From: an uncultured virus (IMG/VR IMGVR_UViG_3300002231_004964)
Taxonomy: Duplodnaviria > Heunggongvirae > Uroviricota > Caudoviricetes
Strand: one strand, 5' to 3'
IMG/VR virus record: IMGVR_UViG_3300002231_004964
DNA length: 64,000 bases
Position numbers and translations under genes: made by a program
Shown: positions 4,755-55,536 of the stretch, piece by piece
Layout of the letters: the number at the start of each line of letters is the position of its first letter
How positions within the stretch are numbered: the first letter of the stretch is position 1
The notes under the pieces: generated by a model
What the model was told of the DNA's origin: nothing
Seen by the model: only the letters and a program-made list of their open reading frames with translations
The model's database searches: none

Positions 4755-4785
4755 AGTTAATTTAACCAGTCATTTGTATTTAAGA

Positions 4786-6168: not shown

Positions 6169-6175
6169 CTTTAAT

Positions 6176-8005
6176 TTAGCCTTGTTTTATCGCCGACTTC
6201 AACTCACGCATATCCGTGACACCTGCCTGTTTTAGAGATTGCAAAGAATTTTCTAAGTTTCTAATTGCTTCTTCAACAGCCGCAATAGATTCGGGTGAGT
6301 TTCCACCTTGTTCAATACAATTCAAACCGTATGCATCACATACCTCACAGTAGCCATCACCGTCTAATTGATGATTGCCCCATTCAGCACCATAGGATAC
6401 TTCGGAACCACTCGGAGAATCACTCAACTCGTAGGGTCTCTCTCCTGCAGGGTCGAAAAACGGGCGCGAAGCATCTTCCATAAGGTAAGATTCACCTTGC
6501 TGTGTCTTAAAGGTTTCGCTCTCGAATTCCACGGTGAACGGGGTGGCGTCGGTATACTCCTCCATGGCATCATCATACGTGTTAACGCCTTCGTATAGTT
6601 TTTCTAACGGCATTTCATACCGACCCGTTGCCATGAATTGGAGTTCGATGACGGCTTCGACAGAACCATAGTAACTGTAGTATTCTCTTAGACCGCTTAT
6701 AGCAGCCTCTAAGTCGAATTCGCCATCTGAAACAAATAATTCATCACCCTCTTGTAACTCTCCTTGTCCCGTAGCGAGGGCTTGGTAGCGATTATATTCG
6801 TCCACATACCCGTCGAAATCATCAGCACTGCGACCTGCTATGGCATACTCGTCTTCATATTCGCTAACGAGTCTCGTTTCGGGGAACACGTATTCGAAAA
6901 AAGATTCCAAAGAATTGACAGCAGGTCCATTTCCACCATACCTTCTAATGCTTGTGTAACCTTCATCACCTCCGACCCATAAATAATTTCCTGTTATGGC
7001 ATCTTTAACAGGATAATCATCGCTTCGGCCGTTTCGAGACATGTTTAAGTTACTCACCATTCCCGTTTGATTATAGGCGCGAGTAGGAACTTCCAAAGGA
7101 ATCTCATATTTGGGAAAATCATCTTGTAACGCCGTTAAGAGGTTTAAACTGTTATTATCAACTTCGAGTTGAACTTGACTGGCAATTTCGTAGGCTCGTG
7201 TGGGATTTGTTATCTTGGTTTCAACATAGGCCATGTGATTCGAGTAACGATTAAGTGGAGAATACTCTTCCCATGTGATGTCGGAACTGAAACGAGCCGT
7301 AACTAAGGCGAGCAAAGCCGCACTTAATTCGACCCGCATCACTTCTTTGAGACGTCTAATCTCATCGGAGTTTTCACCTCGTAACGAGTTTCTAACTTGC
7401 ATTTGGTCTCGGAAAAGTTCAATCCTAGCATACATTTCTTGGAGTTTTGGGATTTCGCGCCATAAGTCCGAATCCGAACGTCGTTTCGAGATGACTCGAC
7501 GAAGGACGGTATTATAAGCCGAAGCCAAGCCGTAAAAGTAATTACTTGACCCGCGATTAAAATTTGAAGAGTTCGTGATGAATTCTTCTCGCTTAGATTC
7601 GGGCAAATGTTGAAACCATTCTACTTCATCTAAAAGGTATTGAGGTGAGAAACTTGTAAATGAATTCACCGACCATTCAACAGGCTGACCGTAAACGTCA
7701 GTATCGACGTTTTGTTCTAAAAAAATTGTCTGAATCCGAGCGATGTAGTCGTCGATGTCAGGGTCAGTACCTTGAAATTTCTCGAGCGTCTCGACGAAAA
7801 AATCTCGCAGGGATTCGTATTCTGCTCGGAAAGCCTCGTCTAAGGTAGAGGAGTCGGCGCGTAACTCGGCAATAGCAGGAGAAGTTGCGTTTAAGACGGA
7901 AACGGAAACTGATAAACTAGGTTCCCAATAAACACTCGTTTTAAACGCTTCCGAGAGGAGGGGAAACGGAACGGTTAATGGATAAGTAGCAAAATACGTA
8001 CTCAT
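6176..8005 (-). CDS. Large acidic hypothetical protein with AE motifs and C-terminal CxxC
   Basis: 609-aa ORF; RBS AGGTGA; FESETF, YGAEW. Confidence 0.75.
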   Translation of the reverse strand: MSTYFATYPLTVPFPLLSEAFKTSVYWEPSLSVSVSVLNATSPAIAELRADSSTLDEAFRAEYESLRDFFVETLEKFQGTDPDIDDYIARIQTIFLEQNVDTDVYGQPVEWSVNSFTSFSPQYLLDEVEWFQHLPESKREEFITNSSNFNRGSSNYFYGLASAYNTVLRRVISKRRSDSDLWREIPKLQEMYARIELFRDQMQVRNSLRGENSDEIRRLKEVMRVELSAALLALVTARFSSDITWEEYSPLNRYSNHMAYVETKITNPTRAYEIASQVQLEVDNNSLNLLTALQDDFPKYEIPLEVPTRAYNQTGMVSNLNMSRNGRSDDYPVKDAITGNYLWVGGDEGYTSIRRYGGNGPAVNSLESFFEYVFPETRLVSEYEDEYAIAGRSADDFDGYVDEYNRYQALATGQGELQEGDELFVSDGEFDLEAAISGLREYYSYYGSVEAVIELQFMATGRYEMPLEKLYEGVNTYDDAMEEYTDATPFTVEFESETFKTQQGESYLMEDASRPFFDPAGERPYELSDSPSGSEVSYGAEWGNHQLDGDGYCEVCDAYGLNCIEQGGNSPESIAAVEEAIRNLENSLQSLKQAGVTDMRELKSAIKQG

Positions 8006-8208: not shown

Positions 8209-8573
8209 ACAAAAATGAATTCATCGATTAAGTATTTTTTGTCGAAATCTCGACCTGCCTTTCGATTGGCTCGGCGAATATCTTTCAAGACCTTTCGCAT
8301 CGGACGACGCAATCCTTCGATAATGGCTTCGTAGTAATGGTCAAAGAATTTACTGTTACAAAACGCTTCGGCTTGTGCGTGAGAACGACCTTCATCACGC
8401 AAGGCTTGATAAGTAGCCTCCCAAAGTGCACCGCCCGCATTCGTGCGAGCGTATCGATTTAAGTCGTAGTCTTCTTCCGCTTCGGGACGGTCAATTTTGT
8501 AGAAGGGTGTTCGGCGTCGTCGACGCAAATCCGACTTAGAGGCTCGGAAAGTCTCCGAAGGCGAAAGTTTCAT
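8205..8573 (-). CDS. Basic hypothetical protein
   Basis: ORF; SETFRA and poly-Arg; may be fused to upstream ORF. Confidence 0.55.
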   Translation of the reverse strand: MKLSPSETFRASKSDLRRRRRTPFYKIDRPEAEEDYDLNRYARTNAGGALWEATYQALRDEGRSHAQAEAFCNSKFFDHYYEAIIEGLRRPMRKVLKDIRRANRKAGRDFDKKYLIDEFIFV

Positions 8574-9168
8574 CTTCTAACATCATTTCTAATTGAGCAA
8601 CGTAGGCGGTAGGACTAGTGTCCATAGCCACTAAAATATCATCGAATAATTCATCCCTCTTGGCATCCACGACAGGTACACCAAAGTAATTAGCCACTTC
8701 AATCAATAATTCGTCGTCAGCCGTTTCTAAAATCGCGACAATAGTTTCTGATTCGAAGGTTTCCGCACGTCGACTCTCGGTCACATGTTGATACCCGTCT
8801 CGTGTTAAATAGTACACGGTTTTTTGCACACGTCCGAAAACTCGGCCGTCATCATCAGTAACGTGAGCCAGTTTTTGTTTAACTAATCCATCACGCATCA
8901 AAGGAGCAACAATTCGATTGACGTTACTTCGATGAACGTCGATAGCAGCCGCTACTCCAAGTTGACTTAGTTGTTGTGGGGCTTCACGAGAATTTTCAAT
9001 CCGTTCGGAATTCCAATTCGATAAGTAGTTAATCAAGGCCTGTTGTTTTTCAGTTAAACTGTGATGTGCCTGTTTAGTAAGGATTCCACAAGCGCCACAC
9101 TGCATTCGGTCTGCACCGTAATTTTCGGCTTGTTTCATTCGTCCAGAACTACAATGATGGCATCTCAT
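8536..9168 (-). CDS. Zn-ribbon plus winged-helix DNA-binding protein
   Basis: CHHC/CGAC; LSQLGVAAAIDVHRSNVNRIVAPLMRDGLV...YYLTRDG; TATA at 9192-9200. Confidence 0.7.
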   Translation of the reverse strand: MRCHHCSSGRMKQAENYGADRMQCGACGILTKQAHHSLTEKQQALINYLSNWNSERIENSREAPQQLSQLGVAAAIDVHRSNVNRIVAPLMRDGLVKQKLAHVTDDDGRVFGRVQKTVYYLTRDGYQHVTESRRAETFESETIVAILETADDELLIEVANYFGVPVVDAKRDELFDDILVAMDTSPTAYVAQLEMMLEDETFAFGDFPSL

Positions 9169-13488: not shown

Positions 13489-14887
13489 CTAGTGGGTGTA
13501 GCCGTTACACCTATTTCCTTTAGGGTCAATTTCCTTCATTTTCTTGACTTGGTTTAACGATTCTTCTAATACTTTAGAGGTGATTTCTTCGTCTCCATTC
13601 TCAATAGTAATTAAGTAAGCCGTAGTCACAACCTCACGCAAATAAGCACCTGTTAAGCCCTCCGACCCTTTAGCAATTTTATCAATAGAAATACGAGACG
13701 TCTTGAACTTGCTTAAATATTTCTTAAGGATATCCCGTCTTAAAATCAACATCTGGAATCGGGAATTCAATTCGGATATCAAATCGACCAGGTCGGTCGG
13801 CTAACGCGCGGTCTAGATATTGAGGATAATTCGTAGTAGCGACTGTGACAACATTTCCTGCAGGCCCTAATCCATTAAGAGAGGCTAGCAATTCCCCTAA
13901 TAGTGGATGACTTGCCCCATCTCTTCGGTCGAGACCTCCAAGAGTGTCGATATCTTCAATAATCATAAGTGTAGGGGCAAGTTTCTCGGCTAAAGCGTAA
14001 ATATTTTTAATTTCACGTAAATTTTCCACCGTGTCGTTGGAAACACATATAACCGTACAATCAACTTGATTAATTATAGCCTCACAGGTCATGGTTTTAC
14101 CAGTTCCAGGTGCACCGTAAAGCAGAATTCCTCGGCTTTTGCTCAATCCCTTAGAAGCAAATAAGTCGGAATTTTTCAAAAAGGAAAGCACATTCCGATT
14201 AATTTTTGAACGCGCTTCATCTTGTAAAACGACTTCTCCAAATTCCGTTGCTAATGGTTTTATATACTCCCATTTATTATTGATAATTTGTCCTTTCAAG
14301 GGCCCTTCTGTGCAAAAGTAATCTTTTACGGCATCCCAAAATGAACGTACAATTGAGTCTTCTCGCAAGTAGTGAGTTCGGAATTCAAGATAACCGTCAC
14401 CACCATCCAAATAGGCTTCTAGTTCGAAGACTACTAAGTTCCCGAATTGTTTATGTTGGGCGAAAATAAAGCCCTCACAAAGTAAACTTTCTTTTTGACT
14501 CGGTCCTACTTCAAATTCGCGATACTTTGGTGCAACTTCCTTATCCGAACCATCAATCGTACGGTTGAAGTTAGTAATTTTTTTAACATCAAAGTCTCGA
14601 ACGACGACATCGTGAAAACATTTGATATTGGCTGAAATTTCGTGTTGCACAAAATCTTTGTGATAAGATTCGAAATCCTCCGAACCTAAAAAACTTTGAA
14701 TGGCATCTAATCTTGCGTCCTTTTTGGTTAAGTTACCGAGACAGTACTGAAACACCGTCGACATTTCTTTGACAGGAACGACGAATTCACGACGCTCGAA
14801 ATCGTAAGAAATGTTTAAAGTTTCGGGTACATCGGCTATTTTCTTCAATGTACCATCTTCGTCATAATGATTCCATGATTGTTCCAT
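13489..14887 (-). CDS. AAA-family ATPase (frameshift near 13745)
   Basis: Walker A GAPGTGKT, Walker B IIEDID, SRH ALADRPGRFD; lid region continues in 13489..13782. Confidence 0.9.
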
Positions 14888-25343: not shown

Positions 25344-25945
25344 TCAGTTATTTAAAGGCTTTGTCTGTAGCGAAAGAAGTTTTGTGAAATCTTTCGGCGC
25401 ACGGCAAGACCAAGTTCCATCCCGATTTTTCAATTCAGACCAAGCCGTCAAAACGTGACCTTTACGAGAAACCACATAACAAAAGACTAGAGCCTCATTA
25501 GATTCAGTATCTACGACAGTAACATCACGTAGGAAATGTGAATTAGTAGGAGTAGAAGCCGTTGATGTAGATTGGATTCTACCCAAAGTTTTTGTAAATC
25601 TTGTCGGTATAATTTCGGAATTGTAGTCGTAACTTTGGCCGAAACGGCATCTCTTTTAATACCACGTTGATACAAATCCTTTTTATGGTCTGCATTCACT
25701 TCGTGTGGATATCCCATTTGAATACGAGCAGTTGCCGTCAATTTAAGTGGTTTCTTCGGACTCGTCATTTGAATGACTTGTCTTTGAAATGTCGGCAATT
25801 CGTCTTGAATCCAATCAGGCCAATAAACGGCACGATGATAGTAATAAAATGGAACTGCATCAGTTTGAACATCGATGTAAAAATCACCAATTGTGAAACC
25901 ACTCATACTACTTGAGTAGTCAATCACCCATATAAAGGCTTTCAC
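25344..25945 (-). CDS. Hypothetical protein (two overlapping ORFs, probable frameshift near 25590)
   Basis: 25511..25945 and 25344..25586 overlap out of frame. Confidence 0.5.
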
Positions 25946-28378
25946 TCTTTCTTAACCATGTTTAGAATCTTATCATCGAGTCCAAGCATCTTACCACCGA
26001 CTAATATGGCGGCAACGCTAGCCACAAATCCTAAGCCCTTCCGAGTCATGATTTCGGCTGCTTTAGTATCAGGGTCAGGTCCTTCACGACTGCCGTCCCA
26101 TTGCAAAACACCTTGTCCAGAATCTGGAGCAGAGTTTGCAGAGCCTAATTTACCGACACCAACTTGATTAGCAGTCAAAGCATCAGGGAAATACTGGTCA
26201 CCATAAAGTGAACCGTCGTAATTCATTTCCGCCGATTGAACGAAAACATCCGACGGTGGAGCCGATGGAGAATCAACATTCACAATATCAAAGCCCGATA
26301 GAGTAGAGTCATCTAGTGGGTCATCACCAGAGGCCATTTCATTAGTAGGTTGAGAGCCAGATGGTTCCGCTCTCTTGTCTTCTTTCTCACACCCACACGC
26401 TTCGAAAGTTTCAGAATGTTTAGTACACCAATTCTCCGCCATAAGGTCTTGTCCAAAGTTTGAACCACTGCCGACAACGCCGAATTCAGCGTTCTTTTCA
26501 GCCTTACCTTTAGCAACGGCGTTACCAACAGTACGTTCCCAAGAGGAAATCCTACCGTCTTTGTCTCGGTCTGCTTTCCGAGGGTCGAAATCAGGATGGT
26601 CTTCGGCAAACTTGATATCATTCGGAGGGGCAGATGGTGAATCTACGGAGATAATTTGGTCGCCTGTTCCTGCGGAACTTGGACCTGCTGTCTTGGGATT
26701 CGCATCGGTCGGACTAGCGTCTGTAGGAGAATAACTTTCAGGAGAGGTCATTGGAGACTCAGCATTCTTTCGGCGTTGTCTTAGGAATCTTTCCATACCT
26801 GAACTCATCATGTCACGGTCATCAGGAGTCATCTCAGCACGTCGTAGTTGCATTTCGGAACGCTTCTTACGACGCATAATTGTTTTAGCGGAAACTCCTT
26901 CACGAGCCGCTTGTGCCATAACTCTTTTACCGTATTTCTTAACACCTAGCATCATAAGCCACTGCACCACCAATCTTCATAGCACGTTCTTCACTCATGC
27001 CTTCATCTTCATACTCATCAGCAACTTCATCTTGCAACTTGTCAAAAGCAGATTCTGCCATCATCATTCTATTGTTACGGTCCATAGTACCGACATTTGA
27101 ATATTTTCGGCGACCCATGTGTCGAGCCTCGCCTTCCGACATGTCTCGTCGGTCGTGCATACTCATTTTACCGTGATGACGACCACGGTTGCGCTCACCC
27201 ATACTTTCGTCGAGGCGAGCATTATATCCTTGATTGTGTTCGGCCATCATCCGATTACCCATATCCATCGTACCTACATTAGAGTACTTTCGGCGTCCCA
27301 TGTGGCGGGCTTCACCTTCAGACATGTCTCTTCGGTCGTGCATACTCATTTTACCGTGATGTCTACCACGGTTGCGCTCACCCATACTATCGTCGAGGCG
27401 AGCATCGTATCCTTGGTCATGAGCCTCTCTAACAAAGTCTCCACGGTGTCCTTGACCAGGTTTTAAATCAGCATTAGGAGTGTATCGGCGACGGTCAGCC
27501 GAGATACTTCTACCACGATTGGTTCGTCCAGTTTGACGTCCTTTACCATCGTAATGCACGTAGTCATCACCATCGATTACTCGATGTGGGTAAGAGTGTT
27601 TTGCCTCGGCCTGCTTGGAAATAGTTTCAGCCAACCATTGTCCATCAGACACAGGGGTTGGATTAATACCTTCTACAGCCTTACTTGTTTCGGCCGAGAT
27701 ATTATCGGAAGCAGTTTCGGAATGGAATGTTTCAGCGGCTAGAGTTTCAGCGTATCCTGTAGTGGTGTAATCCTTGGTTCGCTTTGAACCCTGGGAATAT
27801 TCCTTCATTTTCATCATATTTTTATTTCGACGACGTCGATTAGCCCTGCGGAGGTCTCGCTTACTAGGCTTTTTCCTAGGTGCGGAGAAGGTTTCGGCAG
27901 CCATACTTTCAACAGTAGCCATATCAGCCTCGTTAACTCCCTCAATGAAACTAACAATGGCGTCTTCCTTTTCTTCTTCGTCCTTAGCCGCAATAATTTC
28001 TGTGACTACGAAATCTTCTAAGTCCATTCCTGGAGATTCATAATATCCTTCTTGTCCAACGGCGAACTCGAATGGATAAGCCATTCCAAGAACAACATCT
28101 TCATCACCCATTTCTTCACCTTCTACAATAACCATAGTAGGTTGTTCAACGTTATCTACACGGATAGAAGTTGGACGGAAATTATGGGCGTCAGTCTTAC
28201 CAATTTCGAAATAAAGAGAAGCATGATAAGCCTCTCCATCACTTACTTTTTGCCAATTCACCTTATCAGGCGATACAATTCTAGAATCTTCATAAACTTG
28301 GTCACGTGCACTCCACGAATCGTTAGAGAACGTCCACCAATCTTGGGACCAAACATATACTGCAAAAACATCTTCCAT
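25942..28378 (-). CDS. About 810-aa polyprotein-like AE-motif protein with internal repeats, EF-hand-like motif and C-terminal TM (frameshift near 26947)
   Basis: Joined reading GAVAYDAGVKKYGKRVM; more than 15 xAE sites; KADRDKDGRISSWE; GLGFVASVAAILVGG. Confidence 0.7.
27056..27422 (-). repeat. Tandem intragenic duplication of about 183 nt (61 aa)
   Basis: H.QGY.ARLD.SMGERNRGRHHGKMSMHDRRDMSEGEARHMGRRKYSNVGTMD twice. Confidence 0.95.
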
Positions 28379-28393
28379 AATCAATCACTTACC

Positions 28394-34028: not shown

Positions 34029-34436
34029 TCAATTGTCCTCCTCATCATCGTCGTCGGCAGTTTCCATACACTCGCCTTCGACGCATTCCCACCCTATGCC
34101 GTAAAGTGATTCACAACGTTCATCATCCATACAATAATTACACTTCATCTTATAAGCGGCTTCAAATGTTTCCGCAGTACTAATATTAGAACTTTCAGTT
34201 CCTAGATAACCTGCAGTGACACCGAAAATTGGAAATACTAATCCTGCCCATTTCGGTAAATCTCCACGAGTCTGAGTAGGTAAGTTCCACCACAAAACAC
34301 TAAATATACTAGTAAATAAACCTACAGTGGCTAAAACCAAGGTCGTAGAAGCACTTAGAGATTCGGCTAATCTATTTTCCACAGGTTCACTACAAAAGAC
34401 AGATTCAGCGGCTAAATCTAATAATGCTTCTTCCAT
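34029..34436 (-). CDS. Two-TM protein with AE motifs and C-terminal Cys-rich module
   Basis: LAAES, RLAES, TAETFEA; CNYCMDDERCESLYGIGWECVEGEC. Confidence 0.7.
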   Translation of the reverse strand: MEEALLDLAAESVFCSEPVENRLAESLSASTTLVLATVGLFTSIFSVLWWNLPTQTRGDLPKWAGLVFPIFGVTAGYLGTESSNISTAETFEAAYKMKCNYCMDDERCESLYGIGWECVEGECMETADDDDEEDN

Positions 34437-35738: not shown

Positions 35739-36949
35739 TCAATCATCTCGAAGAAGTGCCAAGACGACGGTGGCGGTGGCTAGAAAACCACCTGTTAAAA
35801 CTAAGCCGAACGTGTAAGGGTTCTTAGTTTTTTCATCCTCTTCCGCTTTCCTTTCTACTACTGGGGCAGACCAAGTTAGAGTAGGTTCATCTAGTTTAGG
35901 AGACATCCAATCGGGTTCGGTGAGGACGGGTGAAGTCACAGGAAGTTTCATCGGGGTGACTTCTGTAGAAAATGTATTGAAACTACTCGTGAATTCCGAG
36001 GCTTTATTTTCCATCACAGGAGTTTCGACGACATCGTAAGCCGTGTGCATTCCAATGTCTTTTTGAGGTCGAACTTCAATGTTTTTACCCTTGTGTTCCG
36101 TTCGTCGGTCACCACGAATCTTACCAATCCATAAGAAACCATCATCTTTCAAGAATTCAGGTGAGTAAAATGATTACATTCACCAGATTGAGCGAAAAGC
36201 GATACCATCTACTAGCCTATCAATCCGCTCTTTATCCGTTCCATAAGATATTTGGTCTTTAATAGCAATCAAGTCACGCGTTTGCATGACGTTGTGAATA
36301 ATGTAAGTACTGGCTTGGGAGAGGGCTTCTTTCGTGATAGCCGCAGGTCGTTGTGTAACCATACAAACACCATAGCCTAAAGCACGACCCAATTTACATA
36401 ATCTAATAATAGGTGCAGTAGCTAGGATTTTCTCTTTTGTAATGGAACGAAATCTTGACACTCTTCGAAAATAGTTAGTAATCCTTTGCCCATTTTGGCT
36501 TGTATTAACGATTCACAATAATCGGCAATCATTTCTTGTTGAGCGTCTAAAGTAAGATTACTAATATCGATAATAAGTGATGAATTAGATTCTTTTAATT
36601 GATTAACTAATTTAGTACAATTAATTGACTCATTTAGTTTCGGAGAAATCTTTTCAATTCCTTCTAATGAGGATAAATGACCGTGAGCGTCGAGCGGGTC
36701 GAAACACACGAATTGAAGACCGAGCCTTTCGAATTCTTCCATCAAAACACCAGCCGTCCACGATTTACCACTTCCACGCATTCCTGTTACGAAGGAAACT
36801 TGATAAATGAATTCTAAAGGAAAGGAAAAATCATCGGCGAGGATAAACTCATCCCTTTGAGCAGTTCGAGGTTCTTCTCGTTGATACTCATCTAACACAT
36901 CGGAANGTTCTCTAGCCTCTCCGACGCCCCAACTTGTGGTTTCATCCAT
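35739..36949 (-). CDS. HerA/FtsK-superfamily ATPase with C-terminal membrane anchor (candidate packaging ATPase); frameshifts near 36445 and 36170-36200
   Basis: Walker A GMRGSGKS, Walker B TIFEECQ, LGRALGYGVCMVTQRP; continuation KIRGDRRTEHKG and TM in 35739..36152; TATA at 36972-36980. Confidence 0.8.
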
Positions 36950-41177: not shown

Positions 41178-42334
41178 TCACTTATACGTTAGCGTAATAT
41201 GATTAGTAGATTTCTTCTTCCTTTTTAAATCTAATCCTTCTATGTTGGGGTAATCATAACGCTCTCCGTCTAAGTAGTAGCCATCGGCCTTTAACTTAAG
41301 GTCGTCGGTAAACGGGATGTGAATTTGTAAGGTAGTAATATCGTCTTTCGATTGCTTGGAAATAATGTGACGTGGCGTAAGTTCTAAATTAGGACAAACG
41401 ACGCGACCGAAATCCACTAAGCGGTCGGCTTTTGGTTCAAAGGGAAATTTCGGAACGCCACAAAGTTTAATACCTAGGGAATTAGTAACCGCACCGTAGT
41501 GAGATAAATAAGGTTGTTGATTATCGCGCTCTAATTTCAGTAAAGCCACGGCTTTATTGGTGTCGGCTAGTTCCCATGTTTCGTCATCAAATGCAGGGAC
41601 AAGATTATTGATAACTACATTCGCCACAGAAATATCGAGCGATTTCAAAAACTTAAATCGTTCTTTGTACACTCTTGGTATCCTGCCTCGGTAGCAATGC
41701 TTACTAGGTTTACTTGCACATGAGACGGGTTTCTAATTAATTCTCTAATTCGTAGCATTAAATTACGAGTATTTTCCAAAAATTCCACAAATGGATTTAA
41801 ATCATCCTTCCTTCGCATCATGAATCCTTTTAAGTTCATAATCTTAGCCCTCATCCGTAAGATACGCAAAATAAAGCCTTCAATGGCTTCGGGACAAGTT
41901 AACGCCTTTAAAGTATGTCCTGTCGGTGCAGTATCGAAAACAATAAGGTCGAACTCAGACCCAACGGTTAAATTTAAGATTTTCTTAAGTGCGAACACTT
42001 CATCCATACCAGGAAAATTAAACCAATCGGAAAACATGTCTGCATCGACACCAGGCATTAAGGTAGCAAAGGAATCTTGCATAAGATTTTGCAATTCACC
42101 GAAAAACTCTTCGGCTTCGGTTGAAGCGTTGATATTAGCAGCCCAAAAATTATCCGAAATATGAGTGGGTTTGAATCCAACAGGAACGCCCAAAACATCT
42201 TCGGTCGAATGTGCAGGGTCGCTACTAACTAAGATGGTTCGATAACCATTTTCAGCCCAAAATTGCGCCGTGGCAGCAGATGTACTCGACTTTCCGACAC
42301 CACCCTTACCAGTAAAGAGAACGAGTCTAGTCAT
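41178..42334 (-). CDS. arsA: ArsA/Get3(TRC40)-family ATPase (frameshift near 41665)
   Basis: GKGGVGKS, SSDPAHS, FPGMDE, FDTAPTGHTL, VVINN; single domain. Confidence 0.9.
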
Positions 42335-42715: not shown

Positions 42716-43936
42716 CTACTTAATTGTTTCCCAATAATCTGCATCTGGAGAAAAGGCACGAGGAAAAACGAAAAGAGAGGTCATATCCACAAATTCACCA
42801 TCTCGATGGATTAAATCTCCAAATAAAATAAAGGTTAAGTAAGAATCATCCTCAAACATGACTTTAGAGACACCACTAAACGCTCCATTTCGATGTGGGC
42901 GTTGCTCTATTCGAGCAATCGGCCGACCATAACCTGGTGCATTCCAATCATCGGCTAATTCTTGTGCGGCGACGAGATTGTTGTATTCTCCCATCATTTT
43001 AACACCTTCGGAAGTTCTAACATGAACTCGGTAAACTGCAGGTTGATAAGGCAAATAATTAGTTAAGATAGTTTCAAACTCATCATGGTCATGGTCATCA
43101 TCGTCGTGGTCATGGTCATGGTCATGGTCATCTTCATTAGGGGCGCCTTCTAAAACCGTCTCAAACGCCTCGAAGATAGTGTGTAATTGCAGTTCAGTTT
43201 GAGTAATGACTTCATCAGGTGTCAAGATATCTAAAGCGACAGGATACGGACCTTCACCAAATCCCTCGATATTTTCTATGAATTCAAAACGGTCAGAACC
43301 GACACGAGAAATGAATTGACGAAGATGACGAGGAGAAAGAATAAATCGAGATTCTAATTCCGTAGTTGCCGAACCTTCGGCCAAGTCCATAAGGAAATCA
43401 TAAGCCTTAGCGGCTTGATAATCCTCTGAATTCCAATCAACATCCTCCCNTTCGAAATCATCACGTCGAACGACGTCACCAGGTGGGTCTGACCAATCGA
43501 CATCATCCCAACTCTCAGCCCCGAAGTCTTGTGGCACTAATCCCATCTTTTGAAGTTCGCGTAACATTATCATTTCCGCCGCATCGGGACTAATTAAACC
43601 CATAGAAATTTCACGGTCTAAGCGCATATCTAATTCCTGCAACTGTGCACGAATCATCATATCATGACGCATCAAGACTTGGTCGACAATTCCTTTCGGT
43701 TTACGACGTTGCACAATGGTGGCTTCAAAGGATTCCGCACTGTAGTATCTTTCTCTCCAATGTACTATCTCTTGACCTGTTTTCGGGTCATGAGCATATT
43801 CACACGTGTTACAGACGAAAAAACGGAAGTCATATGGATTCTCACCAGGCTCCATCTGTCGCTTTTTATAGGCGGACATCCAAGTCCGATTCTTCTTACA
43901 GTTAGGACAATACATTCGTTTGCCTGTTTTAGCCAA
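42716..43936 (-). CDS. Modular AE-motif protein: Zn ribbon, His/Asp tract
   Basis: CPNC/CNTC; YSAESFEA, FGAES; EDDHDHDHDHDDDDHDHDE. Confidence 0.7.
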   Translation of the reverse strand: MAKTGKRMYCPNCKKNRTWMSAYKKRQMEPGENPYDFRFFVCNTCEYAHDPKTGQEIVHWRERYYSAESFEATIVQRRKPKGIVDQVLMRHDMMIRAQLQELDMRLDREISMGLISPDAAEMIMLRELQKMGLVPQDFGAESWDDVDWSDPPGDVVRRDDFEXEDVDWNSEDYQAAKAYDFLMDLAEGSATTELESRFILSPRHLRQFISRVGSDRFEFIENIEGFGEGPYPVALDILTPDEVITQTELQLHTIFEAFETVLEGAPNEDDHDHDHDHDDDDHDHDEFETILTNYLPYQPAVYRVHVRTSEGVKMMGEYNNLVAAQELADDWNAPGYGRPIARIEQRPHRNGAFSGVSKVMFEDDSYLTFILFGDLIHRDGEFVDMTSLFVFPRAFSPDADYWETIK

Positions 43937-45966: not shown

Positions 45967-46800
45967 CTATCCGAGAACGGTCAGTAAGTCAACTTGTATT
46001 GTGTAACGAGATTTATCGACCAATGGTTCGAAATCCATAAGACGTTCGGAACGATAACAAGTAATATCAAACAACTTATAAGGATAACGAATAACTTCAT
46101 TCATATAACCGTATAATTTATTCGGATTAGTCCAGATGTTCATCGTACTAGCAGACGCTTTCATCTCGGCTTCATTGGCCTCCATAAAGGAAACTAAAGT
46201 TTGATATTCAGCAATGATTTCTTGATTAAACATGAGTAAAATTGCTTGTAATTCCAAAGGTAAATCAGGCGAAATGAGATTAGGGTCAAACGGAAAAGTT
46301 GCAGGAGTCTTAACACTATTAGGAGTGGGTTCTAAAGGAAGTTTGAAAACTTGTAAAAGTGAATTTTCTAATTCCGTTAAATCTGAAATATACATCGAGT
46401 AATCAGGTGTCAAGAAAACCTCACCACCTCCGTAAAGTGGAGCAATCCGAGTTTCAAGTTGTCCTCGAGGAATAATTTCATCGGGATAAGCATCGATAGT
46501 AGATTGTGGAATCATACGAGGAGTGTAAATACGAAAAGAAAAATCCTCAAGATAAGGGTCGAAAGCCTCTTCATATCCTGCTTCTTCAAGGTAGCCTTCA
46601 TTAATTTGATGAAAACGAGCCCGAGCCAGGCGTAAAACGTCGAGTAAATTATCAAAATAATATTCTTCGACTCCTGCTTCGGCAAAGGTGATTTCGTCCA
46701 TATTTTCTTCGACACTAGTGTCGGTTAATCGTAAGCGATAAACGGCTCGTTTCGACGCCGTAGGACGGCCCCAATTTAGGGAAGCAAATGGAGACTTCAC
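45967..46800 (-). CDS. KSPFA.LNWG-leader protein 3
   Basis: N-terminus MKSPFASLNWG. Confidence 0.75.
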   Translation of the reverse strand: MKSPFASLNWGRPTASKRAVYRLRLTDTSVEENMDEITFAEAGVEEYYFDNLLDVLRLARARFHQINEGYLEEAGYEEAFDPYLEDFSFRIYTPRMIPQSTIDAYPDEIIPRGQLETRIAPLYGGGEVFLTPDYSMYISDLTELENSLLQVFKLPLEPTPNSVKTPATFPFDPNLISPDLPLELQAILLMFNQEIIAEYQTLVSFMEANEAEMKASASTMNIWTNPNKLYGYMNEVIRYPYKLFDITCYRSERLMDFEPLVDKSRYTIQVDLLTVLG

Positions 46801-47483
46801 TTACGTCCCTCCAAGTTTCTAGGTAAAATTTCTAAAGTGACACGAACTGCACTACTATAATACTCATCGTAGAACTCACTCTTAAATTCGATTACTTTCC
46901 AAAGATTCCTCGCAGGAATAAGTTCGATAAAGGTGGCAAACGATTGATTCAGTCGCTCTCGTTCCGATTCTGAGACACGTCGGCGCAAAATGTTTTGATA
47001 ATCTTGCCAAGAATCAAACTGTGTTATCTCACTCAATCGCTCCCAAACCTGGGTACACACCGTACGAAAAGTCACATAGTCCAAGTGTGGTGATGGTTGT
47101 GATGATGATTGATGGCCTGATGAAAATAAAGTAAATTTAGCCTGTCGAGGCGCTTCATTGTAAAAACCTTGTAAATCAAAAACTGTTAAGGTCTCATTAG
47201 TCGGAACGCCTAATTCATCGGAAATTTCTTCTATCGTCATACCCATAGTGTCAAAATTATCAAAGAACCATTCTGCTCGATTGTCCATTTGACTTGCGGC
47301 GCGTTGGAATAGATTCTCAAACGCCGAAGCAAAATCTGTGTAAACTTGCGTAGGGTTAGACCATAGATAAACTGGCTCACGTTCTGTCAACGAACTACCT
47401 GCCCCGTTTATAGAGACCGTAAAAATATAAGGAGACGTAGGTGAATAAACACCCCAATTTAGCGAAGCGAAAGGAGATTTCAT
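46797..47483 (-). CDS. KSPFA.LNWG-leader protein 2
   Basis: N-terminus MKSPFASLNWG. Confidence 0.75.
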   Translation of the reverse strand: MKSPFASLNWGVYSPTSPYIFTVSINGAGSSLTEREPVYLWSNPTQVYTDFASAFENLFQRAASQMDNRAEWFFDNFDTMGMTIEEISDELGVPTNETLTVFDLQGFYNEAPRQAKFTLFSSGHQSSSQPSPHLDYVTFRTVCTQVWERLSEITQFDSWQDYQNILRRRVSESERERLNQSFATFIELIPARNLWKVIEFKSEFYDEYYSSAVRVTLEILPRNLEGRK

Positions 47484-48124
47484 TGAGACCCTCCAATGCG
47501 GTAGAGACGGAATTCACATTTTTCATCGGTTTCATAACCGTCGTAGTAAGTCAAAAGGAGCGAAATAAGTAAGACGCTCTTTCCTTCCTTCCCCCATTTT
47601 CCCCTTCCTGATTGTTCTACATAGAATTCGATTTTAGGCTCTAAATCGGTTAATTCTTGTTGAGTCTCCACAGGAATGACAGGGAGGGTCTTGAGGTGTG
47701 GTCGAAGAAGACTCCCATTTTGATAAAAGTTTTCTGTCTCAAAAACCTCTTTCTTGAATACCTCATTTAAGACGTCTCGAAGGGCATCATTGAGAAAATA
47801 ATCCATCTTGAATGCTTGATTATCACTCATATCATTTCCGTAGTAGACCCAATCCCAAAAATACGTCAGTTCAGCAAATTCTTCCTCAGATAGGTCGGAG
47901 TATTCAGCCACATTTTCTAACCTCCAAATCCAACCTTGATAAATGCTTCGAGCAAATCGATTAACGGCTTCGCCAAATGTCTTGTATGCAGTAGGAGTAA
48001 TCACGTCCCACGTGTTCAAACCTTCTGAACTGTTACTACTACCACCCGCAGCAGTTACTAGATATAAGGCCGAGTCGTTAGCATGAACTCCCCAATTCAA
48101 GGCAGCAAACGGACTCTTAACCAC
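47480..48124 (-). CDS. KSPFA.LNWG-leader protein 1
   Basis: N-terminus MVKSPFAALNWG. Confidence 0.75.
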   Translation of the reverse strand: MVKSPFAALNWGVHANDSALYLVTAAGGSSNSSEGLNTWDVITPTAYKTFGEAVNRFARSIYQGWIWRLENVAEYSDLSEEEFAELTYFWDWVYYGNDMSDNQAFKMDYFLNDALRDVLNEVFKKEVFETENFYQNGSLLRPHLKTLPVIPVETQQELTDLEPKIEFYVEQSGRGKWGKEGKSVLLISLLLTYYDGYETDEKCEFRLYRIGGSQ

Positions 48125-48127
48125 ACT

Positions 48128-50710
48128 TTACTCCCCCAAGAATCGATGAATGTTCAACAGACCCTCGGCGAATTTTTGCACATCGGCTACTGTCGGAGCG
48201 CCGTAAAGTTCATATTCCGCATTTTGATTAGACCCATAATCATAAGAAATAATCGAATCTAAATATTTCATATTATCGGCCATCATGCCCTCTCCTGTGT
48301 AGGCTCGTAGAGTTTTACTAGCCGATTCCAACGATTCAGCCGACTTGACTTGTTCTAAAACGGATTCCGCACTAAACACTTCCTCAGATTGGAATTCGTC
48401 GATAAAAGCAGTTGGGAATTGTATTTGTGGTTCGTCACCGAATTGCAAGTTCTTAACTAATTGGAACATCTCTTGATTTACCGTAATGCTTGGCACTAGG
48501 GCTAAACGCAATAAGTTAATAACCTTGGGCGATGGCGATTTCACTTGGCGGAAATACTCGTCTAAAGCGTGACCTTCATATTTGAATAAGTATTGACCCG
48601 CTACATTCACAGCAGTACGAGAAATGGCCTTGTCTTCGGGCAGGGTTTTACGAGAACGCATATCGATAGCACCACCATCACTGTCTTCATAGTATTTTCG
48701 ACTTAAAGCACGGGCTAAATCACTAAAGTCGAACGGACGTCCACAAACAGTACACCCTGTACCAACACCCATTGGTGGTGGAGGGTCAACCGAGACTCCG
48801 TTGGCTTCGAATTCTTCAATAAATTTCGGACTAAATGCAGGAATACGTCGTGTCGGAGGAGATAAGCCGAAATCTTGAATATCCATCACACGAGCACGAA
48901 TAGTACCTTCAGGTACTAATATATCTCGCAAAAACGCTTCAACTTTCTCAGCCACATTGCTTCGTTTTTTACCTTCGACTAAGTATTGCGCCATGTATGC
49001 ATTCAACGCATCGGTATGAAACCCGTTCCACTGATTACCTTCTTCATCTACCCACGGAACAACGACTAACCACCAGTAGGCTAATGTCCGACCAGTTTTT
49101 CGAACGCCATACGGATTCGACTTAGATTTAAGAGTTGAAGTCGCAACACTATCGATTTGTTGTCGAGTTTCTTCAGGTACTAATTCAATGAAATCACGTA
49201 AATCATCTGTAGTATCGATAGCAACTCCTTGAGAAATTGCTAAGTCAGTGTACGCGGCTGTGCGAGCCGACTTTACAGCACTATCGTACGCATTTTTAAC
49301 TTCTTCGAAACGGAAACGATTAGCCACATCAAACGGCCGAGCGCAAATTATACAATCTGATTCCGTCCAATTCTCGGGTTCATCACGCGGTGCTTCGAAA
49401 GTTTCTGCTTCTAAGGCCTTTTTACCACCTGTCATTTGACGATTTAGCGAATTAAGGGTCGTGAGAGGTGCGTCGATATTACCTCGCTTCATTCCCATAT
49501 CTTTCCACCATTGTTCGATGGCTTCAGGTCGATAACCACGAGCCCTCATACCTCTAACAGTGAACAATTCAGGGTCATCCCACCCCGAATAAACCCCATC
49601 TTTGATTCCTTTAGCGTACGCAGAAGACGAGAATGAGATAGGAACTTCGTTTTCATCCAAGACATTAACTCGACCCCAATATTCAACTTCAGGATAGTCC
49701 CATCCAAAGAATTCATATAAAATTTGTTGCTTTCGTGTCGAGGCTTGTAAATCAATACCTCGAATAATGTGAGTAATTTCTAATTCATAGTCATCAATAG
49801 CCGATTGGAAATCTAAAACAGGCCAACAAACATCATCAGGTTTTCTAGGGTGACCTCCCAATTGCATTCTAAATAAAACGAAATCACGCAAAGCAGGGTC
49901 GGGTGCATTAGGGTCGCTACGAATACGTAGGACGGCTTCCCCAGGTTGGAAACGTCCTTCAATCATATCCTCAAACAATGCTCTATTTTCTTCTACGGAA
50001 CGGTCTCGATTTGGATTAGGCAATCCTGCGGCTTTTAATTCTGCCGCTTCTTCACGAGAAAGAGTGTCGACGTAAGCACCACCTAGATTGATTAATTGAT
50101 AAGCCCACTCATAATAGATATCAAGACGGTCACTAGCATAATAGATTTCATCAGGCATATCCCCAGTTAACCATTCGATATCTTCGGGAATCATTTGATA
50201 AGCCGCCAATAGAGGCGGTTTCGTACCCATTCCTGTATCATCAAATCTCAGGATGAAATCACCACCATACTTATCTGCATAGGCTCGATTAATAGTGACA
50301 CCACGACTATGCCCTAGAGTCAAGGGCGCATTAGGATTCGGAGCGAATCGAACACGGAAGTTGCCTGTTTCGGCATTTGGAAGTTCCTTCAAAACTTGCT
50401 CTCGCTTTTCCTTTGGACCCTCCATTTTTCGAATCCTCGCCACGGTTTCCATTCCGACAGGACCTAATCGAGCCAGATACGAAATAGAATCCTCCCGACC
50501 TTCTTCATCGTACATGGTGATAGCCTCAGCCATGGCTGCATTGACGTATTTTGGAAGATACTTACCAAATCGTTGCAGAGTAGGTTGTGAACCCATCATA
50601 CGACCCATAATAGAGCCCATTTGAGGTTTACCATTATACTCGATAGTGTTGCCGAGGGCAAAAGCCATAATAATGTCGGCTTGCTCAGGCGTTGGTGTCC
50701 ACTCATCCAT
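48128..50710 (-). CDS. gltX: Archaeal-type glutamyl-tRNA synthetase catalytic domain fused to two CxxC repeat domains (no anticodon-binding domain)
   Basis: RVRFAPNPNAPLTLGH, LRFDDT, YYASDRL, PALRD, FQSAIDD, THIIRGIDL, GWDDP, RGYRPEAI; TATA at 50733-50741. Confidence 0.9.
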   Translation of the reverse strand: MDEWTPTPEQADIIMAFALGNTIEYNGKPQMGSIMGRMMGSQPTLQRFGKYLPKYVNAAMAEAITMYDEEGREDSISYLARLGPVGMETVARIRKMEGPKEKREQVLKELPNAETGNFRVRFAPNPNAPLTLGHSRGVTINRAYADKYGGDFILRFDDTGMGTKPPLLAAYQMIPEDIEWLTGDMPDEIYYASDRLDIYYEWAYQLINLGGAYVDTLSREEAAELKAAGLPNPNRDRSVEENRALFEDMIEGRFQPGEAVLRIRSDPNAPDPALRDFVLFRMQLGGHPRKPDDVCWPVLDFQSAIDDYELEITHIIRGIDLQASTRKQQILYEFFGWDYPEVEYWGRVNVLDENEVPISFSSSAYAKGIKDGVYSGWDDPELFTVRGMRARGYRPEAIEQWWKDMGMKRGNIDAPLTTLNSLNRQMTGGKKALEAETFEAPRDEPENWTESDCIICARPFDVANRFRFEEVKNAYDSAVKSARTAAYTDLAISQGVAIDTTDDLRDFIELVPEETRQQIDSVATSTLKSKSNPYGVRKTGRTLAYWWLVVVPWVDEEGNQWNGFHTDALNAYMAQYLVEGKKRSNVAEKVEAFLRDILVPEGTIRARVMDIQDFGLSPPTRRIPAFSPKFIEEFEANGVSVDPPPPMGVGTGCTVCGRPFDFSDLARALSRKYYEDSDGGAIDMRSRKTLPEDKAISRTAVNVAGQYLFKYEGHALDEYFRQVKSPSPKVINLLRLALVPSITVNQEMFQLVKNLQFGDEPQIQFPTAFIDEFQSEEVFSAESVLEQVKSAESLESASKTLRAYTGEGMMADNMKYLDSIISYDYGSNQNAEYELYGAPTVADVQKFAEGLLNIHRFLGE

Positions 50711-52395: not shown

Positions 52396-53740
52396 TCATC
52401 CGATACTTCCATCCATTTCCAACTCTAAAAGTTTGTTCAACTCTACTGCGTATTCCATTGGTAATTCTTTTGTAAAGGGTTCGAAGAATCCATTAATGAT
52501 GAGTGCCTTNGCCTCTGCTTCGGTATACTCCCCTACTCATTAGATAAAATAACTGGTCGTCTGAGACCTTTGATACGGATGCCTCATGTTCTGTAATTGC
52601 TGAATGACTTTCTACCTCCATTGTAGGGTAAGTATCTGATTGTGAATTTCCATCCATCAAGAGAGCATCACAAACTACATTAGAGCGGCAGTTCTTTGCT
52701 TTGCGGGATATTTTTACCAACCCTCGGTATGAAGTACGCCCTCCATCCATACTAATACTTTTAGAGAGGATGTTTGAAGTTGTGTTTGATGCAAGATGAT
52801 GAACTTTGGCTCCTGTGTCTTGATGCTGTCCTTCTTTTGCATAAGCAACAGAAATTACTTCTGCATGGGCGTTTACTCCCTTTAGAAGAACGGCAGGATA
52901 TTTCATTGTTAAGGACGAGCCAATGTTCCCATCTACCCATTCAATAATTGCATCCTTGTGGGCAACTGCTCTTTTGGTAACTAGGTTGAAAATATTATCC
53001 GACCAATTTTGAATAGTAGTATAACGGATGTGCGCTCCCTCTAATGCTACTAATTCTACTACGGCTGAATGCAAACTGTTGGTAGAAAATGTTGGAGCGG
53101 TGCAACCTTCAATGTAGTGAATAGATGAGCCCTCATCAGCCACGATAAGAGTGCGTTCAAATTGACCCATATTTTCGCTAGCGATGAGAAAGTATGCTTG
53201 CACAGGTATGTCCACCTTTACGCCTTTAGGAACGTAGATGAATGAACCTCCAGACCATACGGCAGTATTCAAAGCAGAGAATTTATTATCTGCACTTGGG
53301 ACTACACTACCAAAATACTGTTTTACTATGTCAGGGTGTTCTCGTAAACCTGAATCCATATCCATGAAAATAACACCTTGACTTTCTAAATCTTCCCTAA
53401 TGGAATGATAAATAGACTCACTTTCGTATTGTGCAGTTAGTCCTCCTAACCATTTCTGTTCGGCCTCTGGAATGCCTAATGCATCAAAAGTCTGTTTGAT
53501 TTTATCAGGAACTTGGTCCCAATCTTGTTGGGTTTCTCCAAGGACACGAAAATAGCAAATATCATTGAAATCTAAGGTATTCAATTTTTCAGTATTTCCC
53601 CATTGAGGTGTAGGTCGTTTGACAAACTGTTGGTATGCTCTAACACGAATATCCGTCATCCAAGTAGGCTCACGCTTGTAATTAGAAATAGCCCTCACTA
53701 CTTCTTCAGATAGCCCGTCATGAAGTTCATAACTTTCCAT
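52396..53740 (-). CDS. sufB: Fe-S cluster assembly scaffold SufB (frameshift near 52530)
   Basis: [50 protein letters not shown]; alternate frame ends [27 protein letters not shown]. Confidence 0.95.
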
Positions 53741-53787: not shown

Positions 53788-55536
53788 TTAACTTTCTAAT
53801 TCGTCAAGGATACCGTCGCCATCATCATCCGTGTCGATGTAATCAGAGACGCCATCATTGTCGTGGTCAAATTGACCTGTCATGTTGTTACCGTCGTTGT
53901 TTTCGAACCAGTCAGAAAGACCGTCGTTATCATCGTCGGTATCAGTTGCGTCCCAAATACCATCATTGTCGTGGTCGTAACGATACTCACCCCAAGAACC
54001 GCCTACTTCATCCACGTCTAAAATGTTATCGTTGTCGTCGTCAGTATCAACTGAATCATTTAGACCATCATTATCGTGGTCACGACTTGCATCAGACCCA
54101 TTTTCATATACGTCATTACGATTATCGATACCATCATTATCGATATCAAAATCGAATCTGTCTTGGATGCCATCATTATCGTGGTCATAAATATCAGTGT
54201 TTGGATTACCATCGTTCACTTCTTCATCATCATTGATACCATCGCCATCATCGTCATTATCTTCATGGTCGTCAATACCATCATTGTCGTGGTCGTTTGG
54301 CGATTCGTCTTGGGAATCAGGGATTCCATCGTTATCATCATCATTGTCTAATACATCGGGGATGCCGTCGCCATCGTTGTCATTGTCACCGTTTTGTTCC
54401 TGGTTGTCAATTTGTTGACCTTGTTGTTGGTCTGATTGTTGACCTTGTTGACCTTGTTGCCCATTCTGAGTTTGACCTTGCTGTTGTTGGTTTTGACCAT
54501 TTTGGTTCTGACCACCTTGGTTTTGTTGCTCTTGTTGACCTTGTTGACCACCTTGCTCACCACCATTTTGTTGCTGACCTTGACCGTTATCTTGTTGTTG
54601 ACCTTGCTGACCTTGCTGACCTTGCTGACCACTTTGGCCTTGTCCAGTTTGTTGTCCTTGTTGGCCTGCTTGTCCCTGTTGGCCTTGCTGACCTTGCTGT
54701 CCTTGCTGGCCTTGCTGACCTTGTTGACCTTGACCTTGTCCCTGCCCTTGACCTTGTCCCTGGTTCTGACCTTGCCCCTGACCTTGTCCTTGACCTTGAC
54801 CCTGGCCCTGACCTTGGCCTTGACCTTGGCCTTNACCTTGGCCTTGTCCTTGGCCTTGTCCTTGGCCCTGTCCTTGGCCTTGTCCTTGTCCTTGTCCTTG
54901 GCCTTGTCCTTGGCCTTGTCCTTGGCCTTGACCCTGTCCTTGACCTTGTCCTTGTCCTTGGCCTTCACCTTGTCCATTGTCGTTGGATTCGCCACCGCCT
55001 TCTGTACCTCCATTACCTGAACCTGCTTGAGATTCTTGATAATCAGGGTCATAAGCATCGGGAATTCCATCACCATCGGAGTCACTAAACTCTCCATCAT
55101 TCGGGTCGTTAGGATACGGGTCGCTACCATCTGGTTTACCGTCACCATCAGTGTCGGCTGAGTTTGGGTTTGTTCCGCGTTGATATTCTTGCGAGTTAGT
55201 TAACCCGTCACCATCAGGGTCTCCATTGGCATCTCCACCATTCAGTGGGTCTAAACCATGATTAACTTCCCAACCATCGGGTAATCCGTCGCCATCAGTA
55301 TCGGGATTATTGAAATTCGTTCCTTCGTTTTGTTCTTCCGCATTAGTTAAACCGTCACCGTCCCAATCGGCCCCACCATCAGATGGGTCTAAGGGGTCAG
55401 TGCCGTCAGCCGCCACCACACCTGCAGACATTGCAAGCATAAGGGCAGTCAAAATTGTTAACAATACGCGCTTCGTTCTAGATTCTTTTACATTCTCCAT
55501 ATTTTCACTTACTTGTGTTCGTTCTAGGAAACCCAC
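53788..55536 (-). CDS. Secreted/anchored protein with TSP3-like Ca-binding D-rich repeats flanking a (GQ)n/(GQQ)n tract
   Basis: Signal-like hydrophobic segment; DxDGDGL and DHDNDG repeats; RBS GAGGAG. Confidence 0.85.
   Translation of the reverse strand: MGFLERTQVSENMENVKESRTKRVLLTILTALMLAMSAGVVAADGTDPLDPSDGGADWDGDGLTNAEEQNEGTNFNNPDTDGDGLPDGWEVNHGLDPLNGGDANGDPDGDGLTNSQEYQRGTNPNSADTDGDGKPDGSDPYPNDPNDGEFSDSDGDGIPDAYDPDYQESQAGSGNGGTEGGGESNDNGQGEGQGQGQGQGQGQGQGQGQGQGQGQGQGQGQGQGQGQGQGQGQGXGQGQGQGQGQGQGQGQGQGQGQNQGQGQGQGQGQGQQGQQGQQGQQGQQGQQGQAGQQGQQTGQGQSGQQGQQGQQGQQQDNGQGQQQNGGEQGGQQGQQEQQNQGGQNQNGQNQQQQGQTQNGQQGQQGQQSDQQQGQQIDNQEQNGDNDNDGDGIPDVLDNDDDNDGIPDSQDESPNDHDNDGIDDHEDNDDDGDGINDDEEVNDGNPNTDIYDHDNDGIQDRFDFDIDNDGIDNRNDVYENGSDASRDHDNDGLNDSVDTDDDNDNILDVDEVGGSWGEYRYDHDNDGIWDATDTDDDNDGLSDWFENNDGNNMTGQFDHDNDGVSDYIDTDDDGDGILDELES
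54410..54975 (-). repeat. Coding microsatellite: about 40 GQ hexamers then GQQ nonamers
   Basis: Degenerate CCTTGN hexamer array on the plus strand. Confidence 0.95.

Follow-up and report, generated by a model that had tools for sequence, protein, structure and literature searches.

A glutamyl-tRNA synthetase core lacking its anticodon-binding domains, fused to duplicated CxxC modules, in a putative virus of marine archaea

The DNA stretch analyzed here, the 64,000-nucleotide uncultured virus record IMGVR_UViG_3300002231_004964 (referred to as the window), carries on its minus strand an open reading frame (ORF) in which an archaeal-type glutamyl-tRNA synthetase (GluRS) core is followed by two CxxC modules and a C-terminal tail. 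The parts of this ORF are listed in Table 1. About 40 related fusion proteins exist.

The GluRS core and its truncation point

To define the GluRS part, the ORF was compared with domain models and solved structures. The class I Glu/Gln catalytic domain PF00749 was the sole Pfam match (aa 119-410, E 1.1e-52). Against the archaeal/eukaryal-type GluRS models of NCBIfam, the ORF scored below the cutoff both for TIGR00463 (346.8 versus 401.75 bits) and for the archaeal model PRK04156 (435.7 versus 516 bits); in the latter, aa 11-426 corresponded to model positions 6-405 of 567, and the score was low because the C-terminal third of the model has no counterpart in the ORF. The best solved relative was the archaeal GluRS 3AII, in which chain residues 5-395 aligned with aa 11-425 (E 1.9e-73). 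According to the domain description in PMC2978374, 3AII consists of a YqeY domain (residues 1-85), a Rossmann fold (86-170 and 288-331), the CP domain (171-287), a stem-contact fold (354-399), and beta-barrels (400-552). Judged from this alignment, all GluRS domains through the stem-contact fold are retained, and the chain leaves the GluRS fold within a few residues of the first beta-barrel. The proposal in the initial annotation that the core ends where the anticodon barrel begins was thus borne out, with both alignments stopping at aa 425-426.

The beta-barrel anticodon-binding families PF03950 and PF20974 gave no Pfam match in the ORF, and its C-terminal half was predicted to be helical, which disposes of the possibility, raised in the initial annotation, that the C-terminal repeats are canonical anticodon barrels. 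A separately encoded anticodon domain was ruled out for the window and for the 18 related loci found in a metagenome scan, where profile searches were empty and tblastn returned only matches with E > 0.1.

The state of the active site was assessed in a core alignment of 38 sequences, comprising 8 proteins of the fusion clade, 4 proteins of a second clade described below, and 26 full-length cellular enzymes. The cellular enzymes were the best non-fusion matches; all carry PF00749 and most carry PF03950, and the few with source names were assigned to Poseidoniales, Thalassarchaeaceae, Thermoplasmatota, or Thermoplasmata. The HIGH and KMSKS regions of the ORF do read TLGH and ISFSSS (aa 358-363), as first described, but the deviance that this description implied was not confirmed, since all 26 cellular marine Thermoplasmatota enzymes have equivalent forms. 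The HIGH motif had the form [ST]xG[HS] in 26 of 26, with H at the last position in 25 of them, the KMSKS position read FSTS, LSTS, or FSKS in every one, and canonical HIGH was present in some members of the fusion clade. Because the forms in marine Thermoplasmatota GluRS match, TLGH and SFSSS are inherited rather than decayed. R121 and R317 were invariant in 38 of 38 sequences; the former corresponds to 3AII Arg100, a Glu-binding residue in the account of PMC2978374. Of the 125 columns conserved to at least 95% in the cellular enzymes, the fusion clade retains 94 and the second clade 104.

The closest full-length cellular enzymes, which are of the Poseidoniales type, shared 42-47% identity with the fusion protein. 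In an unrooted maximum-likelihood tree of the cores (38 rows, LG+C20), the 12 cores without anticodon domains were separated from the 26 cellular cores by a branch with support of 100/100. A single capture and a single loss of the barrels would fit this tree, which does not prove them because it is unrooted and its cellular sample consists of best matches only. The second clade (P0076-P0088) comprises proteins of 504-728 aa with PF00749 only, whose core is 49-56% identical, ends at the same place, and continues with xAE[ES][FV]. Most of them carry a strongly basic extension (net charge +17 to +53, isoelectric point 9.5-10.2), for which DUF5872 was matched below threshold only, in 5 of 7 scanned proteins; P0076 instead carries zinc-ribbon-like modules and a C-terminal hydrophobic helix. 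Across the two clades, the loss of the barrels is constant and the appendage varies.

The fusion gene across independent contigs

A search with the C-terminal half alone retrieved 44 proteins, 40 of which also carry PF00749, with lengths of 860-1179 aa and on contigs of up to 192 kb. In the 18 loci, the gene order around the fusion was kept in 6 contigs, and the orthologous gene was uninterrupted in all 12 cases extracted, each from a separate contig. Near-identical DNA was present in 18 runs, which belong to 8 studies of marine, seawater, or aquatic samples, and the whole gene including the junction is spanned by an independent 27.7-kb contig from another of these runs. The order of core, two modules, and tail was stable down to 40-49% identity (P0046). 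Misassembly of the junction, the other weakness that the initial annotation had allowed for, is excluded, because many independent contigs carry the junction with intact genes and conserved synteny. An artefact of assembly or annotation, for which the chimeric related contig L017 might be cited, accordingly has a negligible probability. In L017, positions 3749-7830 hold unrelated sequence with long bacterial-looking ORFs after GluRS residue 303, and this contig is probably an assembly chimera in the public record.

The ratio of nonsynonymous to synonymous divergence (omega; Nei-Gojobori, 8 pairs) was well below 1 in all five regions of the gene. In the core, it was mostly 0.07-0.15, and two very close pairs gave the extreme values of 0.32 and 0.51. 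Every region of the fusion gene is under purifying selection. The C-terminus was near-invariant across 37 sequences, and E436, T437, F438, and E439 of the first junction were invariant in 21 family members.

Synonymous divergence varied up to 60-fold between regions of the gene, and a comparison of the window with the near-identical contig L001 revealed a mosaic block (aa ~211-450) with ~20% versus ~3% nucleotide divergence, the right edge of which lies at junction 1 and the left edge inside the CP domain. These two observations indicate that recombination acts within the GluRS fusion gene. Contigs of run X7 break right beside the first junction motif (window 49363-49386), which, together with the edge of the mosaic block, suggests recombination near cassette boundaries. 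No natural gene split at a junction was found among the candidates inspected: P0013, P0040, P0043, and P0045 are fragments whose start is an internal Met within a known domain, L012 is cut off by the end of its contig, and L017 is a chimera. In RNA libraries, contigs of two studies match the gene over 203 nt and ~240 nt, stretches too short to infer transcription from.

Relatives were also sought in virus collections and in the literature. Two family patterns scanned against IMG/VR were matched 55 times, in no case by a relative. In 50,697 GenBank phage records, no relative of the CxxC half was detected, and the matches were synthetase cores of at most 33% identity. A literature search found no paper linking Poseidoniales viruses to aminoacyl-tRNA synthetases, and the magrovirus passages retrieved were unrelated to GluRS.

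CxxC modules, junction peptide, and neighboring genes

After LEAETFEAP (aa 433-441), the initial annotation had reported two related CxxC domains, and this relationship was substantiated. The two modules, headed by C453/C456 and C653/C656, matched each other marginally in BLASTP (E 7e-4 and 0.011) and clearly in a profile-profile comparison (96.9% probability, E 1.4e-10 over 97 columns). In addition, module 1 of the distant members L015 and L016 matched a hidden Markov model (HMM) based on module 2 at 72.9 bits. Judged from these comparisons, the duplication is real.

The C-terminal 430 aa had no Pfam or NCBIfam match, PHROG matches were confined to the core, PDB sequence matches stopped at aa 425, and the ESM Atlas gave no usable match for the C-terminal half. 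The full-length structural model was poor (mean predicted local distance difference test [pLDDT] 58, predicted template-modeling score 0.34) and all-helical after aa 460, and it was too weak to place the modules against the core. A model of aa 441-790 built from 44 sequences was helical with one small hairpin; the pLDDT was 90-95 for ~80 residues of the first module and 60-79 for the second. In the VIA fold search, the best row for the modules was an HMG box (Z 4.4, root-mean-square deviation 3.8 Å, 57 residues), which is below the noise level, and Foldseek returned nothing at E <= 0.001. The HMG-box rows were not read as a relationship, as their Z values lie within the noise for helical folds. 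The CxxC module, apparently undescribed and predicted to be helical, matched no known fold or family in these searches.

The module is shared with proteins that are not synthetases. An HMMER search with aa 431-860 against 1.84 billion representatives yielded 31 proteins at E <= 0.001. About 25 of them carry module 2 only; it stands at their C-terminus or close to it, after an otherwise unrelated series of small modules that are often rich in Cys. Several of these proteins begin with a hydrophobic helix. A Pfam scan of 26 module proteins gave no family except in one distant GluRS fusion. Over 44 sequences, the invariant residues of the module were C, C, R, G, A, and L only. A classical zinc ribbon or knuckle has four metal ligands within one module; here, each module has two invariant Cys and no other conserved Cys or His, which led to the idea that two modules may share one site. 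When module 1, module 2, and Zn were predicted as a complex, the score was 0.54 (runs 0.69, 0.54, and 0.06) against 0.02 for the best control, the runs agreeing in at least 10% of contacts, a result graded as weak support by the prediction tool and taken as no more than that here. When this score was calibrated, 116 of the 157 solved complexes reached the mark, as against 2 of the 215 mismatched pairs; of those passing, 18 of the 157 solved complexes and both mismatches did so with a score of 0.60 or less. The modules are net acidic. Since the anticodon domains of the host enzymes are likewise acidic, charge was judged uninformative on RNA binding in the fusion clade.

A boundary peptide, [FLY]xAE[ST]F[EGD]A[EDP], was observed at every module boundary, including all three junctions of the ORF: the core is followed by AETFEA, module 1 ends with EEFEA, and module 2 ends with DEFQSEEVFSAES. 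Extra cassettes in relatives, whether they separate the core from module 1 or module 2 from the tail, are each bracketed by this motif. In the window, the strict form AE[STDE]FxA occurred 4 times, all in long minus-strand ORFs, against 0.07 expected, and a loose form occurred 14 times against 2.8 +/- 1.7 expected; neither count was reached in any of 500 shuffles. Among 108 non-redundant instances, positions left free in the search pattern were also biased (Ala at -1, 76%; E/D/P at +5, 77%; F/L/Y at -3, 44%), and the motif density was 3.17 per 1000 aa compared with 0.62 in the cellular GluRS set. In module proteins other than GluRS, the motif occurs up to 7 times, and the same mini-modules are found there in changing order. 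The codons of the motif differ between sites, indicating that selection acts on the peptide, and a repeat at the DNA level was ruled out on the same grounds. All three junctions fall in low-pLDDT stretches, and some proteins have the motif 3-11 residues away from their annotated N-terminus. The motif may serve in cleavage or docking, or may be no more than a linker signature. The motif also occurs in other ORFs of the window (42716-43936, 4786-6168, 26939-28384, 34029-34436, 8536-9168, and 25942-26973); in ORF 42716-43936 it follows a CxxC...CxxC zinc-ribbon-like head, and in two conserved window proteins it stands ~65 residues from the N-terminus.

Table 1. Parts of the GluRS fusion ORF in the window
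Feature	Position	Strand	Evidence or remark
Whole ORF: GluRS core, two CxxC modules, and tail	48128..50710	minus	860 aa plus stop
N-terminal YqeY-like domain of archaeal GluRS, aa 1-105	50396..50710	minus	alignment to 3AII chain residues 5-93
Catalytic core (Rossmann fold, CP insertion, stem-contact fold), aa 106-430	49421..50395	minus	PF00749; 3AII alignment to chain residue 395
HIGH motif = TLGH, aa 131-134	50309..50320	minus	alignment; host-lineage form
KMSKS-equivalent loop = SFSSS, aa 359-363	49622..49636	minus	alignment; FSTS in cellular relatives
Junction motif 1, AETFEA, aa 435-440	49391..49408	minus	directly after the core end
CxxC module 1, aa 447-630, helical with small hairpin	48821..49372	minus	C453, C456 invariant
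Junction 2, FIEEFEAN and PPPP linker, aa 631-646	48773..48820	minus	low pLDDT in both models
CxxC module 2, aa 647-770	48401..48772	minus	C653, C656 invariant; copy found in ~25 other architectures
Junction 3, DEFQSEEVFSAES, aa 771-783	48362..48400	minus	where relatives have inserted cassettes
Helical C-terminal tail, conserved, aa 784-860	48131..48361	minus	pLDDT ~78; omega 0-0.16

With regard to the genome context, the minus strand encodes 71 of the 74 tabulated ORFs of the window, and a Pfam scan of 73 ORFs left 59 without a family. The recognizable genes encode SufB, a Get3/ArsA ATPase, Fpg, a Hjc-like nuclease, an ATP-dependent ligase, two glycosyltransferases, a PAN-like AAA ATPase, and a SAP-domain protein. 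No capsid, portal, or terminase gene was detected in the 64-kb window, in which a weak HerA/terminase-like ATPase fragment is present at 36422-36949, and no tRNA gene was found in the window or in 12 loci. Nothing was found to indicate that the fusion protein is packaged in the virion, as the initial annotation had considered possible. From the genome style and the GluRS donor lineage, it is a reasonable inference that the element is a virus of marine group II archaea. In viral and phage collections, the ligase matched only distant phage ligases, and a conserved 433-aa neighbor had no match there and no usable one in the ESM Atlas. PDB profile searches with two conserved neighbors gave no match for one and none below E 0.5 for the other.

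The GluRS fusion is followed immediately downstream (45967-48124, minus strand) by three tandem paralogues whose stop and start codons overlap. Their N-terminal motif S-P-F-A-x-L-N-W-G is invariant and may be a targeting or processing signal; the rest is only 14-28% identical without a family match, and orthologues of the array occur in L004, L008, L009, and L010. A full SufB iron-sulfur assembly gene (52493-53740; TIGR01980, 620 bits) is present only in the window and in L001; it is a recent auxiliary insertion, because the corresponding position in five other syntenic contigs lacks it. The Get3/ArsA ATPase, of the tail-anchor insertion type, is split in the window into 164 and 229 aa (41178-42334) and is a single ORF of 384-424 aa in relatives, probably reflecting a frameshift or sequencing error in the window. 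A 582-aa protein (53788-55536) with bacterial thrombospondin type 3 repeats and a long (GQ)n/Q-rich low-complexity tract is conserved in position in all syntenic contigs. The AAA+ ATPase at 13724-14887 is closest to proteasome-activating nucleotidase (PAN), CDC48, and FtsH, with 95 bits to PAN, far below the cutoff, and would be a candidate unfoldase acting on the modular proteins.

Possible function and comparison with known systems

Taken together, we tentatively favor the reading that the ORF encodes a still-active, anticodon-blind GluRS core for which the pair of CxxC modules serves as a docking or assembly unit. A competent GluRS core would have been captured from a marine, Poseidoniales-like Thermoplasmatota host by a large virus-like element, with the two beta-barrel anticodon domains lost once and lineage-specific appendages taking their place. 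The core would contact tRNA through the YqeY domain, the CP insertion at the acceptor end, and the stem-contact fold only, and the enzyme would be anticodon-blind because only these retained contacts are used. The basic extension of the second clade is as expected if the core still handles RNA. The CxxC modules would not be tRNA readers and would instead form a docking or assembly unit common to many modular proteins of related elements. Each module may be half of a four-cysteine site, in which case the two tandem copies would probably pair by folding back within one chain, and proteins with a single module would dimerise; such a unit would position or organize the enzyme and give no specificity.

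Several observations weigh against this reading. Four cell-invariant positions are altered in both viral clades (D160 to G/S, K319 to I/S/V/E, P383 to F/Y, and R399 to E/T/L), and D320 is G in one subclade. All four CP-domain zinc ligands are lost in the fusion clade, 3AII C191/C193/C208/C210 being replaced by D215/L217/N232/N234, and the lost site lies near the CCA-binding region; the full ligand set is also missing in 5 of the 26 cellular enzymes. The catalytic competence presumed for the core is deduced from its sequence, the modules have no assignable fold, so that a tRNA-binding role for them is possible, and the predicted module complex scored 0.06 in one run with the partner pLDDT falling to 37. 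In GlnRS, moreover, the anticodon is described in PMC2978374 as an important signal to the active site.

Some of these points would suit a non-translational transferase resembling GluQRS, which would activate Glu yet transfer it elsewhere than to the 3' end of a tRNA, for example to a modified base or another RNA, or else to a protein or small molecule, with the modules recruiting the acceptor. GluQRS is defined by the loss of the anticodon domain, and the viral-specific core substitutions, the lost CP zinc site, and the lack of tRNA genes point the same way. However, GluQRS models scored only 22-68 bits against cutoffs of 250-453 (best 67.6 against 250), the YqeY and stem-contact domains of a full archaeal GluRS are kept, the class I motifs and Glu-binding arginines are unchanged, and the basic tail of the second clade resembles a generic RNA binder; we regard a transferase as unlikely. 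A catalytically dead decoy or scaffold that binds tRNA is far less probable still, as the changed cell-invariant positions, including D320 in one subclade, are few and stand against signature motifs and substrate-binding arginines that are kept and a core omega of ~0.1. The modules could also be a replacement tRNA-binding domain that grips the tRNA body or anticodon arm. They occupy the chain position of the lost domain, bacterial GluRS has an unrelated alpha-helical anticodon domain instead of barrels (PMC2978374), a helical cage of the kind imagined here, and the top structural rows were nucleic-acid binders (HMG boxes and the ArgRS helical region). These rows, at Z 3.2-4.4, are nevertheless below the noise level for helical folds, the modules are acidic, the same module ends ~25 non-synthetase proteins, many with N-terminal membrane helices, and the second clade has a quite different appendage, and we consider such a role improbable.

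An explanation that overlaps the favored one treats the ORF as a string of cassettes or a polyprotein, in which AE-[ST]-F-x-A marks processing sites (or docking motifs) and the core, the two CxxC proteins, and the tail act separately. The presence of the motif at all three boundaries and around every extra cassette, its enrichment in the window, the up to 7 copies between shuffled mini-modules, and the conserved flanks with differing codons in low-pLDDT linkers are all consistent with it. On the other hand, no protease was detected in the 64-kb window, no gene is naturally split at the motif, the order of the parts is stable across divergent relatives, a motif so near the N-terminus of some proteins would be odd for cleavage, and the motif strings were not contained in any relevant paper found. 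We hold this explanation to be doubtful. A broader proposal, to which we likewise give a low probability, is that the lineage builds proteins as exchangeable cassettes joined by a [FLY]xAE[ST]F[EGD]A[EDP] processing or docking code, and that the released or docked GluRS core glutamylates tRNAs or another acceptor irrespective of the anticodon and so reshapes host translation. If true, the cassette-joining peptide would represent a type of signal, for processing or for docking, that has yet to be described in viruses of prokaryotes.

The Glu/Gln synthetases are a textbook case of anticodon recognition wired to catalysis. A natural, selected lineage without anticodon readers and with an apparently intact active site would test what the core can do alone and would reveal how such an enzyme benefits a virus of the abundant marine group II archaea. 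The fusion also brings to light two undescribed recurring elements, a helical CxxC module that seemingly needs a partner copy and a boundary peptide at cassette junctions, and either could provide a handle on the assembly, targeting, or processing of viral proteins.

Compared with 3AII, the non-discriminating GluRS of Methanothermobacter thermautotrophicus, and with Poseidoniales GluRS, the fusion protein shares the YqeY, Rossmann, CP, and stem-contact parts, and it shares its HIGH and KMSKS variants with the enzymes of marine Thermoplasmatota and Poseidoniales. It differs from 3AII in lacking both beta-barrels and the CP zinc ligands and in carrying ~430 aa of unrelated helical sequence. GluQRS (YadB) is a truncated GluRS paralogue that glutamylates queuosine, a modified anticodon base, in tRNA(Asp), and, like the fusion protein, it is a GluRS catalytic core without an anticodon-binding domain. 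The fusion protein is an independent truncation of the archaeal-type, not the bacterial-type, enzyme; whereas GluQRS is a stand-alone core of ~300 aa, the 860-aa fusion protein keeps the YqeY and stem-contact domains and has large appendages. A C-truncated E. coli GluRS without its distal domain reportedly stays specific for tRNA(Glu) (Dubois et al. 2009), but that enzyme is bacterial, with an alpha-helical anticodon domain, and is a laboratory construct rather than a natural lineage.

Synthetases on viruses of prokaryotes have precedents in the class I LysRS of the haloarchaeal virus HGTV-1, as reported in PMC8651126, and, by annotation, in the GlnRS of Escherichia phage D6. Phage synthetases matched the viral core only and at no more than 33% identity. 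For the CxxC pair, the Rad50 zinc hook and the Get3 dimer offer an analogy, as one CxxC per subunit and two subunits make up each four-Cys site. The analogy is one of cysteine arrangement rather than of sequence or fold, and for the CxxC modules both metal binding and the weakly predicted pairing are putative.

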